This document shows positions 57,817-59,543 of a stretch of DNA of 64,000 nt, in pieces. Below the pieces are notes generated by a model. It was not told the DNA's origin, did no database searches, and saw only the letters and a program-made list of their open reading frames with translations. The stretch is from Acidaminococcales bacterium (GTDB taxonomy: Bacteria; Bacillota; Negativicutes; Acidaminococcales; JAISLQ01): the NCBI GenBank assembly GCA_031552765.1, contig JAVBME010000010.1, forward strand, positions 3,704 to 67,703. The letters are read 5' to 3'. The first letter of the stretch is position 1, and the number at the start of each line of letters is the position of its first letter. The translations under genes were made by a program, and so were the position numbers.

Positions 57817-58689
57817 TTATATCACGCCAACTGCTTTTTTCGCTTCTTCTTTCACGCCGACCGGACACTGGGTCAGGCAACGCCCGCACATGGCCGCTAC
57901 CCGCTCCATCTGGTTCCAGACGATGTCGGTCGAGGCGATTTTCAGCCATCCCTCGACGTTAGGTATGTCGCGCGGTATATCCGCCTGCAGACGCCCGGGC
58001 GTACCCTTGGCCAGGCCGGTAACGCCACAGCGGCAGACCGGCTTTGTCAGTTTGGCATATTTGAATACTTTGTCTTCTATCCGTACTTCGACGCTCTCTT
58101 CCCTGGGCAGGGCGCCGACCGGACAGATAGCTACGCATTTTCTGCAGCTTTCACCCAGGCATAGCTTTTCTCCCTGGTACAGAGGATCGGGCGGCAGTTC
58201 ACAGTCAAGGATTAGCGGCGCCCAGCGCACGCGCGGCCCGGCATCCGGCGTCAAAGCCAGCCCGTTCCAGCCCATATCGGCAAGGCCCGCGCATACTGCC
58301 GCGTGGCGGTTGGATATGACGCCTTCCATCTTGTATTCATCGCGCGGCGTCGAAGCCGGCAGCAGGAAAGTATCCACTCCTTCTTTTTCCAGAAAACGCG
58401 CCATCTTGCTGGTCATACCGTTGAAAATATCATTGATCAGGTTATAACCAAATATCATATAAGTGAAAATACCGTGCCTGAGGCCTTGGTAAGAGCGGTT
58501 ATTGGATTCGATCGCCCCTTGCGGTATTTTCATGCCCATGACCACTACCGATTTGGCGGTCGGCAGAAAATCCGTCGGCCGATGCCCTTCCGGGGCATAC
58601 TGCCAGCGGCTGACCGGCGCTACGCCAAAATAGTCCGCGCCTTCCGCTATCGCCATTTGCCTTAATATTTCTTTCAACTGTGCGCTCAT
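57817..58689 (-). CDS. Cytoplasmic 2x[4Fe-4S] protein, RdhA/QueG-like (paralog B)
   Basis: ~290 aa with no signal or TAT motif. DYFGVAPVSR N-terminus, C-x4-C-x2-C-x3-CP (LCLGESCRKCVAICP), a distal Cys, then C-x2-C-x3-CP (MCGRCLTQCP). Start placed at MSAQLKE (58689). Confidence 0.65.
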   Translation of the reverse strand: MSAQLKEILRQMAIAEGADYFGVAPVSRWQYAPEGHRPTDFLPTAKSVVVMGMKIPQGAIESNNRSYQGLRHGIFTYMIFGYNLINDIFNGMTSKMARFLEKEGVDTFLLPASTPRDEYKMEGVISNRHAAVCAGLADMGWNGLALTPDAGPRVRWAPLILDCELPPDPLYQGEKLCLGESCRKCVAICPVGALPREESVEVRIEDKVFKYAKLTKPVCRCGVTGLAKGTPGRLQADIPRDIPNVEGWLKIASTDIVWNQMERVAAMCGRCLTQCPVGVKEEAKKAVGVI

Positions 58690-58694
58690 AACTA

Positions 58695-59543
58695 TCACCC
58701 CTTTTGGCCGCCGGCCGGGCATTCCACCATACAGCGCTGGCAATAGTTGGCGTGGCTGAACTCCATCCTCTGCCACGGGCTGTCTTTACGGGAAAAAGCG
58801 TTCCACTCCGCCATATCCGCGATGCTTTCCGGCACGTCCGCCTGCATGCGGCCGGGCGTTCCTTTGACCATACCAGCCGTTGCCAGGCGGCACTTTACCT
58901 TGTCGCGTTTGGCGTAACAACTTTTTTTCTCCTCTATCTCCACCGCTGTAGCTTCGTTTTGCGACAAAGCAGCCGCGGGACAAACTTGTACGCACTTTTG
59001 GCATTTTTCGCCAAAGCAGAGTTTCTCACCTTGATAAAGCGGGTCTGGCGGCAATTCCAAAGCGGAAATAACCGAAACCCAACGGACGCGCGGCCCATTG
59101 TCCGGCGTCAGCACAAAACCGCTCCAGCCAAATTCGCCCAGGCCAGCGCACACTGCGGCGTAACGGTTGGACATAGCCCCCATTAACAGCGCCTCGTCCC
59201 GCGGCACGCCGGACGGTATCGGGTAACTTACAGCCCCGTGCTGTTTTTCCAGGTACTTGACTATTTTGAAAGCGGCCAGGTCCAATTTGTCATTAAGTTT
59301 GTTGTAGCCGTGCACAGTATAGGAATATATAGCATGCCTTAAATCAGCAAAAGCTTTTTTATGCGCCGCTATCGCGCCGTCCGGTATTTTTACCCCCAGT
59401 ACTATCACCGACTTGGCAGCCGGCAAAAGATCTTCAGGCCGGTGGCCGGCCGGCAGGTTAACCAGGCGCGACACCGGCGCGACGCCAAAATAATCCATAT
59501 CCTGTAAAAACGCCAATTCTTTCAGTTGTTCTTTTACTCCCAT
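58695..59543 (-). CDS. Cytoplasmic 2x[4Fe-4S] protein, RdhA/QueG-like (paralog A)
   Basis: 282 aa, same architecture: DYFGVAPVSR, LCFGEKCQKCVQVCP, YCQRCMVECP. 5-nt gap to paralog B. Confidence 0.65.
   Translation of the reverse strand: MGVKEQLKELAFLQDMDYFGVAPVSRLVNLPAGHRPEDLLPAAKSVIVLGVKIPDGAIAAHKKAFADLRHAIYSYTVHGYNKLNDKLDLAAFKIVKYLEKQHGAVSYPIPSGVPRDEALLMGAMSNRYAAVCAGLGEFGWSGFVLTPDNGPRVRWVSVISALELPPDPLYQGEKLCFGEKCQKCVQVCPAAALSQNEATAVEIEEKKSCYAKRDKVKCRLATAGMVKGTPGRMQADVPESIADMAEWNAFSRKDSPWQRMEFSHANYCQRCMVECPAGGQKG

Follow-up and report, generated by a model that had tools for sequence, protein, structure and literature searches.

The window analyzed in the present study is a 64,000-nucleotide stretch of contig JAVBME010000010.1 (assembly GCA_031552765.1) from an Acidaminococcales bacterium. 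Two adjacent paralogous genes, designated A and B, are encoded on its minus strand. Gene A (58695-59543 including the stop codon, 58698-59543 without it) encodes 282 aa, and gene B (57817-58689 including the stop codon, 57820-58689 without it) encodes 290 aa from an ATG. The junction reads ...AAG GGG TGA tagtt ATG, leaving a gap of 5 nt, and the purine-rich AAAAGGGG is located immediately 5' of the B start. An alternative 319-aa frame of B starts from a GTG and overlaps A; however, translation is unlikely to begin at this codon. In BLASTP, A and B were identical at 138 of 276 positions (50%; E 1e-105) over their full length. The blocks DYFGVAPVSR, GHRP, AKSV, PRDE, SNR.AAVCAGL, GPRVRW, ELPPDPLYQGEKLC, KGTPGR.QAD, and C.RC...CP are common to both translations. 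The original prediction of two ORFs of 282 and approximately 290 aa with a 5-nt gap, identical at roughly half of their positions and sharing these blocks, was thus correct. Neither a twin-arginine (RR) nor a hydrophobic export signal was found at the N terminus of either translation, and residues 3-13 of A form a helix with high confidence in the AlphaFold (AF2) model.

A gene for a CoA-transferase of the succinate CoA-transferase subfamily (59567-61068, minus strand; TIGR03458, 688 bits against a cut-off of 658.7) precedes gene A. Its PDB matches are succinyl-CoA:acetate CoA-transferases, which align from query residue 47, and the ATG at 61068, located after the RBS GGGGGGAG, is the likely start. 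Gene B is followed on the same strand by genes for a DASS-family (CitT-like) di/tricarboxylate carrier (56375-57790; PF00939, 485 bits over the full length; TIGR00785, 395 bits) and for GcdA, the carboxyltransferase subunit of glutaconyl-CoA decarboxylase (54596-56365; 724 bits to Acidaminococcus GcdA [1PIX], residues 15-588). A sigma-54-dependent activator with a PrpR_N sensor and a PAS domain (61330-63219, minus strand; PF06506, 137 bits; PF00158, 229 bits) is encoded upstream. A perfect palindrome with an 18-bp stem followed by a T-run (61267-61309, minus strand) terminates the activator gene and may also serve as a binding site for the activator. A pattern search and the sequence identified a -24/-12 sigma-54 promoter, TGGCATGATTATTGC (61192-61206, minus strand), 5' of the CoA-transferase gene. 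It drives the CoA-transferase, A, B, carrier, and GcdA genes as one operon; since the one-mismatch pattern was not enriched across the window, this promoter assignment rests on position. Besides A/B, the only enzymes of the operon are the CoA-transferase and GcdA. The operon contains no electron-donor module, B12 riboswitch, or cobamide-related gene, and an Rfam scan of the whole window revealed no riboswitch or other RNA family.

The first cluster motif of A is C-x4-C-x2-C-x3-CP (C176, C181, C184, and C188), and the second comprises the distal C218 and C268-x2-C271-x3-C275-P. All eight Cys were invariant among 81 family members, most of which also have the C-x4-C spacing of the first motif. 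As judged from the alignment, the eight Cys of each protein would be sufficient for two [4Fe-4S] clusters. The truncated C-x2-C-x3-CP motif with a distal Cys had been predicted and was present; however, the preceding motif, described as a full one, is not the canonical C-x2-C-x2-C-x3-CP. In the same alignment, S125-N126-R127 was invariant. R127 aligned in a profile alignment with Arg141 of Bacillus subtilis QueG, which sits beneath the corrin ring (PMC5175355). The catalytic D-Y-H motif and Asp134 of QueG (B. subtilis numbering; PMC5175355, PMC4646009) fell on non-conserved A/B residues (Y-N-K-L-N, and L120 near the PRDE loop), although the loop alignment is uncertain. The catalytic residues of RdhA were likewise not recognizably conserved. 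The check for corrinoid-binding residues that accompanied the original prediction returned one invariant Arg and no recognizable DYH/Asp134 equivalent.

The proposed relationship of A/B with RdhA and QueG is real but distant. Against the reductive dehalogenase (RDH) profile TIGR02486 (NCBIfam), A and B scored 38.8 and 36.2 bits (curated cut-off, 160.35 bits), and against the QueG profile TIGR00276, 35.9 and 36.4 bits (curated equivalog cut-off, 200 bits), namely, 4-5-fold under both cut-offs. A Pfam search yielded sub-threshold ferredoxin matches only, without DUF1730 or PF06050. PDB sequence matches were PceA, the RDH complex, and QueG. The AF2 model of A (pLDDT 94) matched PceA, QueG, NpRdhA, and then CblC in Foldseek, and no others (probability 1.0, E 1e-9 to 1e-5, TMq 0.45-0.59). 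Since profile scores were below the cut-offs and structural matches were limited to these four proteins, A/B are assigned, by sequence comparison and on the predicted structure, to the class-III cobalamin fold (RdhA/QueG/CblC), outside both known families. Placement in a characterized family or simple ferredoxin folds would have refuted the original prediction; no characterized family claims A/B, and they are not simple ferredoxins.

Similar to A/B, QueG (B. subtilis 5D08, S. thermophilus 5D6S) is cytoplasmic without a TAT signal, and its N-terminal cobalamin-binding core precedes a ferredoxin domain with two [4Fe-4S] clusters; its Arg141 corresponds to the invariant R127. However, identity is only about 17-22%. 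A/B lack the HEAT-like tRNA-binding C-terminal domain of QueG because they end 7-15 residues past the last Cys motif, and the model of A contained no such C terminus or any other domain beyond the core and the Fe-S part. QueG is also a single-gene monomer that functions in tRNA modification, whereas A/B are a conserved paralogue pair in the context of a carboxylate/CoA-ester catabolic operon. For the core and the first Fe-S motif, the closest matches in both structure and sequence were reductive dehalogenases (PceA 4UQU, RDH complex 8Q4H, and NpRdhA 4RAS/6ZXU), which also share the eight-Cys arrangement with the truncated second motif and distal Cys. They are 440-700 aa in length and lack the C-x4-C spacing. 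No TAT signal with an RdhB anchor, N-terminal transmembrane helices, or NADPH reductase module was found for A/B or their neighbors, and nothing in the context of A/B suggests an organohalide substrate. A/B are, as predicted, shorter than RdhA and QueG and without an export signal. Han et al. (2025) described "cytosolic RdhA-like" classes, but these are NpRdhA-like or about 395 aa and, thus, do not correspond to A/B (PMC12219181).

The A/B family is rare and uncharacterized. It comprised 157 clusters among 5.8 billion proteins and eight loci among about 185,000 species genomes. We found no function linked to it in the literature searched, including under joint QueG, RdhA, CoA-transferase, and glutaconyl-CoA decarboxylase themes. 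The phylogeny suggested in the original prediction separated A and B into distinct clades with 100% support. B keeps all invariant residues of A, and clade-specific differences are located at positions 128, 136, 141, 143, 144, 213, 258, 265, and 267. A preceded B in all two- or three-gene sets examined: A-then-B pairs (L001, L007, L008, L009, L013, L014, L016, and L029) and A-A'-B triples (L003, L015, L030, and L032), while single B-like genes were present in L011 and L031. This order, with small gaps or overlaps, was kept across distant lineages. Natural three-module fusions (about 45 clusters, 725-836 aa) also exist, one of which was modeled as a proxy for the complex and formed one compact body (pTM 0.94). 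Its model did not superpose globally on NpRdhA (TM 0.27-0.30); therefore, no solved structure backs a specific interface. Since the fusion modules did not map one-to-one on the A and B clades, the fusions show an association of modules, not specific A-B pairing. The heterodimer suggested in the original prediction is thus supported only indirectly, by the clade split, the constant gene order, and the multi-module fusions. An A/B hetero-oligomer remains an inference without association data.

CoA-transferase genes adjoined A/B in nine contexts and belonged to three non-homologous classes, from which a CoA-ester substrate is inferred. The family III enzymes among them were closest to succinate-glutarate and succinyl-CoA:mesaconate CoA-transferases. 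A GcdA-type gene adjoined A/B in three contexts, namely, the window, L009 (78% identity), and L030 (55% identity), and two A/B pairs in L029 flanked thiolase, Hbd, and crotonase genes for crotonyl-CoA metabolism. A PrpR_N-type sigma-54 activator was also encoded beside A/B in L007, L008, L009, and L013. The contexts of L014, L015, L016, and L031 contained neither a CoA-transferase nor GcdA. The triple-fusion contexts L021 and L022 had no relation to CoA metabolism and, thus, are uninformative on the substrate.

The GcdA of the window is the sole GcdA-type protein in the host genome, and the other three carboxyltransferases are MmdA-like. Among the five genomes of the host family (one only 75% complete), three contained both A/B and GcdA and two contained neither; GcdA was present only in genomes with A/B. 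Together with the GcdA neighbors and the crotonyl-CoA genes of L029, this co-occurrence, counted in only five genomes, is the basis on which a link to glutaconyl-CoA is inferred. An HgdAB-type dehydratase was present in all five genomes. In the host genome, the HGD-D genes and an HgdC-like activator are located on another contig than A/B. Since this HgdCAB-type dehydratase has its own CoA-transferase, there is no strict need for a second dehydratase, and HgdCAB could be the enzyme that GcdA serves. The host genome makes or salvages cobamides, with five cobalamin riboswitches above the threshold, CobS, and a B12-dependent mutase. These genes and riboswitches are only indirect evidence for a corrinoid in A/B.

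The analysis establishes the A/B sequences with their fold and Cys ligands, the structure of the operon, the conservation of the pair, and its co-occurrence with CoA-transferases and GcdA. We propose that A and B constitute a heteromeric corrinoid/Fe-S enzyme that converts a C5-dicarboxylyl-CoA to glutaconyl-CoA in the place of HgdCAB in the pathway. The corrinoid, substrate, reaction, and hetero-oligomer are all inferred, and we regard the case for and against this proposal as evenly balanced. The two subunits would be cytoplasmic, and in each a ferredoxin domain with two [4Fe-4S] clusters would come after the class-III cobalamin fold. The DASS carrier would import the C5 dicarboxylate and the CoA-transferase would form its thioester. 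The Fe-S clusters of A/B may then relay low-potential electrons to a base-off corrinoid; ferredoxin is the probable donor, in line with the genes for a small ferredoxin and a 2-oxoacid:ferredoxin oxidoreductase next to A/B in L030 and L015. Co(I) would attack the leaving-group carbon next to the thioester, with the 2-hydroxyl of 2-hydroxyglutaryl-CoA as the most likely target, and elimination would yield glutaconyl-CoA. This putative reaction is modeled on QueG, where Co(I) attacks a C-O carbon and an alkene is then formed by elimination. GcdA, with membrane subunits from other loci of the genome, would decarboxylate glutaconyl-CoA to crotonyl-CoA.

A/B would consequently stand in for HgdCAB, the unrelated ATP-activated radical dehydratase of the hydroxyglutarate pathway. 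The order of the classical cluster is gctAB-gcdA-hgdCAB. HgdAB (Acidaminococcus and Clostridium) resembles A/B in its position between a CoA-transferase and GcdA and in being a two-subunit Fe-S enzyme, and both would act on a dicarboxylyl-CoA. However, the two have no sequence or fold relation, A/B have no adjacent ATP-dependent activator gene, and the cofactor proposed for A/B is a corrinoid; we propose this likeness as a functional analogy only. The inferred substrate may be narrowed to a C5 dicarboxylate, but no further. Aconitate/tricarballylate, itaconate/mesaconate, and sulfonates were also considered as substrates, and glutarate oxidation was judged a poor fit to low-potential clusters. 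A more specific reading, in which A/B are a new class-III B12 branch, that is, a heteromeric, ferredoxin-primed corrinoid/[4Fe-4S] enzyme for dicarboxylyl-CoA thioesters and here an ATP-independent 2-hydroxyglutaryl-CoA dehydratase or related alpha-substituent eliminase, is possible but put forward tentatively. Some observations do not agree with the main reading: dehydration is redox-neutral, but class-III enzymes carry out net two-electron reductions; A/B show no recognizable counterparts of the QueG and RdhA catalytic residues; and, besides the contexts without a CoA-transferase or GcdA, the CuyB-like racemase of L015 and the AsrABC-like genes of L032 point to different chemistry.

The reductase character of class III also underlies another explanation, in which A/B are a net reductase and an electron sink that uses reduced ferredoxin to remove a hydroxyl, amino, sulfonate, or halide group from an activated dicarboxylate or to saturate its C=C bond, while GcdA acts on another intermediate. 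All characterized class-III enzymes are two-electron reductases (PMC4646009). Moreover, the A/B sets of L030 and L015 adjoin the ferredoxin and oxidoreductase genes mentioned above, that of L032 is followed by AsrABC-like sulfite reductase genes, and that of L015 is also adjacent to a CuyB-like acidic amino-acid racemase. However, the window operon contains no donor module and, as other enzymes, only the CoA-transferase and GcdA, the latter of which requires the 2-enoyl (glutaconyl) structure that a saturating reduction would remove; we consider this explanation doubtful. Whether A/B hold a corrinoid at all may also be questioned, because corrinoid binding is inferred only from the predicted fold and one aligned Arg, with no biochemical data for any family member. 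The N-terminal domain may keep the fold without the cofactor, making A/B an Fe-S enzyme, with or without a flavin, that acts on acyl-CoA, such as an enoyl-CoA reductase or radical dehydratase. The fold is related to flavin nitroreductases, to which the fusion model showed weak Foldseek matches, and this reading accommodates the non-conserved active-site residues and the absence of a B12 riboswitch or cobamide-related gene from the operon. Nevertheless, all significant structural neighbors bind cobalamin, the block most conserved with RdhA/QueG (SNR-AAV-AGLG...G...TP-GPR) and the Arg141 equivalent are invariant, and the host has a cobamide supply. We consequently judge a corrinoid-free enzyme to be rather unlikely.

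The retention of every cofactor-ligand residue in both proteins and the lone B-like genes of L011 and L031 would be expected if A and B each worked alone as a monomeric isoenzyme, handling, for example, two stereoisomers or two consecutive steps, rather than as subunits; QueG is also a monomer (PMC5175355). However, their strict order across distant lineages, the triple sets, and the compact body predicted for a natural fusion make this distinctly improbable, and cores pair up in known class-III enzymes. PceA is a homodimer with two cobalamin-core modules. NpRdhA-type proteins also pair two such modules; Han et al. (2025, PMC12219181) ascribe their monomeric state to an additional core domain for cobalamin binding, which is vestigial. 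We find it scarcely tenable that A/B belong to a known family as ordinary members, whether as true epoxyqueuosine reductases or as reductive dehalogenases of the respiratory or catabolic type. The name "epoxyqueuosine reductase" is given to relatives in some public sources, and weak RDH/QueG profile matches exist; however, the scores are far below both cut-offs, the tRNA-binding domain, TAT signal, RdhB, and reductase domain are absent, and the setting is a carboxylic-acid catabolic operon. Furthermore, a separate, better QueG-like gene (103 bits) is located on another contig of the host genome.

Class-III cobalamin/Fe-S enzymes have been structurally characterized for only two reaction types, reductive dehalogenation and epoxyqueuosine reduction (PMC4646009). 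If the main reading is true, the known chemistry of B12 would be extended by a third branch, with CoA esters of central-metabolism-like dicarboxylates as its substrates. To our knowledge, the "umpolung" dehydration step to glutaconyl-CoA is otherwise known solely from ATP-driven HgdCAB-type radical enzymes; A/B would offer a second solution in biology, unrelated to the first, and might let anaerobic fermentations reach glutaconyl-CoA without an activator. The reading of "epoxyqueuosine reductase" annotations and of B12 dependence in metagenomes from gut, rumen, digesters, and sediment would change accordingly. The window operon, which places the carrier, CoA-transferase, A/B, and GcdA under one sigma-54 activator, is a compact and testable system.

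Genes A and B lie next to each other on the minus strand (58695-59543 and 57817-58689, respectively, including stop codons) and encode proteins of 282 and 290 aa, the latter counted from ATG. The junction, AAG GGG TGA tagtt ATG, leaves a gap of 5 nt, and a purine-rich stretch (AAAAGGGG) directly precedes the start of B. Two adjacent ORFs of this size and spacing had been predicted, and the reading of the minus strand agreed. BLASTP aligned A and B over their full length with 138/276 identities (50%, E 1e-105), matching an estimate of one half by eye, and all of the shared blocks named in the original prediction were found in both translations. 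The proposed lack of an export signal also held because neither N-terminus carries a twin-arginine motif or a hydrophobic stretch. The layout of the Fe-S motifs was only partly as described. The second motif is truncated, with a distal Cys (C218) and C-x2-C-x3-CP; however, the first has the spacing C-x4-C-x2-C-x3-CP, which differs from the description.

A Pfam search of A and B returned ferredoxin matches only, all sub-threshold. NCBIfam scores were weak for the RDH model (A 38.8 and B 36.2 bits, cut-off 160) and the QueG model (A 35.9 and B 36.4 bits, cut-off 200), and a true QueG or RdhA is essentially excluded. The only non-ferredoxin PDB sequence matches were an RDH complex, PceA, QueG, and NpRdhA, across the conserved core and first Fe-S motif. 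An AlphaFold2 model of A, built from an 81-sequence family alignment, had a mean pLDDT of 94.3 and pTM of 0.92. All 46 significant Foldseek matches of this model (E ≤ 0.001) were PceA/RDH, QueG, or NpRdhA, with CblC (MMACHC) next at E about 1e-3. These proteins all bind cobalamin. The profile scores, PDB matches, and Foldseek matches together support the suspected RdhA/QueG kinship, although it is distant.

In the family alignment, eight Cys (176, 181, 184, 188, 218, 268, 271, and 275) and S125, R127, A130, G134, G142, and G150 are invariant. The same fold without a corrinoid is a rival reading. In a profile alignment, R127 corresponds to Arg141 of Bacillus subtilis QueG, which lies 4 Å beneath the corrin ring (PMC5175355). 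However, the catalytic residues of QueG (D-Y-H motif and Asp134) are not kept in A/B. Cobalamin riboswitches, CobS, and a B12-dependent mutase in the host genome indicate that cobamides are available. QueG also differs in its tRNA-binding domain, which is missing from A and B since both terminate directly after the last Cys motif. We concluded that A and B belong to the class-III cobalamin/Fe-S fold superfamily, outside both characterised families. Neither the structure database nor the curated family libraries nor the searchable literature yielded a characterised member.

Among 5.8 billion protein clusters, a word-indexed search identified 157 relatives, which were unnamed, 'hypothetical', or automatically named 'epoxyqueuosine reductase'. 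Against 1.84 billion representatives, an exhaustive profile search gave 249 clusters with E < 1e-30, rising to 1305 with E < 1e-10. Scanning ~185,000 species (one genome per species) yielded eight loci, in Paradesulfitobacterium, Syntrophobacteraceae, Acidaminococcales MAGs, Desulfovermiculus, and others. The pair occurs in 3/147 genomes of the host's order, all three within its own family. A tree of 117 members separated an A clade (77) from a B clade (40) with 100% support and contained additional duplications within the A clade. Cofactor-related invariant residues are all retained in both clades, which differ consistently at nine positions (e.g., Y/H at position 128).

All of the two- and three-gene sets examined have A ahead of B, the genes being narrowly spaced or slightly overlapping wherever coordinates were read, and A-A'-B triples occur in four lineages. 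Among the matches listed in the profile search, ~45 clusters of metagenomic proteins (725-836 aa, within P0125-P0199) each join three RdhA/QueG-like modules in a naturally fused chain. The first and third modules are complete; the second is degenerate, without any Cys that is invariant or nearly so. In the model of one fusion, P0128 (pLDDT 92, pTM 0.94), the chain forms a single compact body, and its module arrangement does not superpose on NpRdhA. The constant gene order and these Rosetta-stone fusions support a hetero-oligomer, in line with the predicted heterodimer, but do not prove one. The fusion modules arose by a duplication independent of the A/B split, and A and B may instead be two independent monomers. 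Modules 1 and 3 of P0128 share an identical ~58-aa stretch, for which gene conversion and a chimeric assembly are both possible explanations. Gene contexts differ among the fusions (L021:1829-4111 and L022:7176-9560); the latter lies with a sugar ABC transporter, an FAD oxidoreductase, and a URO-D-like gene.

The minus-strand order in the window is a sigma-54 activator, palindrome, promoter, CoA-transferase, A, B, DASS carrier, and carboxyltransferase. The activator gene (61330-63219; PrpR_N and PAS domains) ends at a perfect palindromic terminator with an 18-bp stem (61267-61309), which may double as an activator-binding site. The -24/-12 promoter (TGGCATGATTATTGC) is at 61192-61206. The succinate-type CoA-transferase (59567-61068; TIGR03458, 688 bits) is listed with a 542-aa TTG start that overlaps this promoter. 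Homology and a strong RBS (GGGGGGAG) indicate that its true start is the ATG at 61068, ~125 nt downstream of the -12 element. The DASS carrier (56375-57790) and the carboxyltransferase (54596-56365; GcdA-type, 724 bits against Acidaminococcus GcdA, 1PIX) follow B, and no convincing terminator was found inside the gene string. On this strand, the activator is preceded by an MFS transporter of 453 aa and a VOC/glyoxalase-family protein of 174 aa similar to methylmalonyl-CoA epimerase (63338-64000, running on along contig C20 to 69012); the two may be regulated together with the operon.

The CoA-transferases that adjoin A/B sets fall into three non-homologous classes: the acetyl-CoA hydrolase/transferase type (window, L013, L007, L003, and L032), family III (L001 and L009; nearest to succinate-glutarate and succinyl-CoA:mesaconate transferases), and the class I two-subunit type (L008, L009, and L030). 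This swapping of classes provides good evidence for a carboxylic-acid CoA thioester as the substrate. The sets also come with carboxylate carriers (DASS, TRAP, TctC, MFS, CitMHS, or a DUF5058 pair) and LysR or sigma-54 regulators, although neighbour annotation at some loci rests on our own ORF calls. A GcdA-type gene adjoins A/B in the window, in L009 (78% identical to the window's), and in distant L030 (55%). L009 additionally holds GctAB-like genes and a crotonase, and in L029, two A/B pairs flank a thiolase, a 3-hydroxyacyl-CoA dehydrogenase, and two crotonases. In the small sample of five genomes of the host's family, A/B and GcdA occur together in three and neither occurs in two; an HgdAB-type dehydratase is present in all five. 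The L007 contig (CAYRSQ010000047.1; sigma-54 activator, CoA-transferase, A, and B) is binned as 'uncultured archaeon'; its genes are 51-62% identical to the window's, and it is probably mis-binned and bacterial.

In the classical hydroxyglutarate pathway, HgdCAB, the radical 2-hydroxyglutaryl-CoA dehydratase with its activator, stands between a CoA-transferase and GcdA. A/B sits in the same place, and we propose on this basis that it makes glutaconyl-CoA. It would be a heteromeric corrinoid/[4Fe-4S] enzyme converting an activated C5 dicarboxylate to glutaconyl-CoA, which GcdA would convert to crotonyl-CoA. The most plausible reaction would be Co(I) attack with elimination of the 2-hydroxyl of 2-hydroxyglutaryl-CoA, by analogy with the Co(I)/C-O chemistry proposed for QueG (PMC4646009, PMC5175355). 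We lean slightly towards A/B being a class-III-fold Fe-S enzyme pair that acts on a dicarboxylyl-CoA in a GcdA pathway; its specific identity as a 2-hydroxyglutaryl-CoA dehydratase is tentative and rather unlikely. The corrinoid, oligomeric state, substrate, and redox balance are all inferred. Moreover, the genome carries its own HgdCAB cluster, and GcdA thus does not necessarily depend on A/B.

Alternatively, A/B may carry out a net reduction, either removing a substituent or saturating a double bond, and ferredoxin modules beside the sets favour this reading. In L030 and L015, an aminotransferase, a small ferredoxin, and a 2-oxoacid:ferredoxin oxidoreductase adjoin the set, and this module is a possible electron donor. 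Two further contexts favour it as well. In L032 (10620-13580), the CoA-transferase is followed by three genes whose domains match the pattern of anaerobic sulfite reductase AsrABC, and an L015 racemase (11735-12451) scores 209.9 bits against the cysteate racemase CuyB cut-off of 190. These neighbours of A-A'-B triples hint at sulfonate or acidic amino-acid substrates, so that some subfamilies may use sulfonated or amino dicarboxylates.

The GcdA-type gene of the window is the sole one in the 2.4-Mb host genome; the remaining three carboxyltransferases are MmdA-like, and the five Na+-pump beta-subunit (OAD_beta) genes all lie outside the window operon. GctA/GctB-like genes without gcdA occur at a contig start (C28:420-2218) and are 89-90% identical to those in the L009 cluster of a related genome, which indicates rearrangement between genomes or a split by the contig break. 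Outside the window, the host genome has a second, very distant tandem QueG/RdhA-like pair (C42:4406-6171; loci L019/L020; 291 and 292 aa; 33-41 bits against QueG), divergent from a sigma-54 activator. Past this activator are a DUF5058-type membrane pair, a succinate-type CoA-transferase, methylmalonyl-CoA-mutase-like large and small subunits, a PrpD/MmgE protein, an MmdA-type carboxyltransferase, and two TRAP permeases. The cluster repeats the theme of pair, CoA-transferase, and decarboxylase with different parts. In L015 and L030, relatives of this pair (256-263 aa) lie ahead of the A-A'-B triples. A fifth QueG-like gene (C36:36092-37081, 345-aa frame) covers the whole QueG model with a score of 103 bits, under the 200-bit cut-off, and may be either a divergent true QueG or one more member of the family.

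Organic-acid catabolic modules are unusually abundant in the host genome, which has, besides the five OAD_beta subunits, 25 or more loci that match the sigma-54 activator, nine family III and three succinate-type CoA-transferases, at least seven DASS carriers, and more than 15 crotonase-family genes. The organism looks like a specialist in decarboxylation-driven fermentation. On this reading, A/B would be a new functional branch of a known superfamily, with a compact and testable pathway context.
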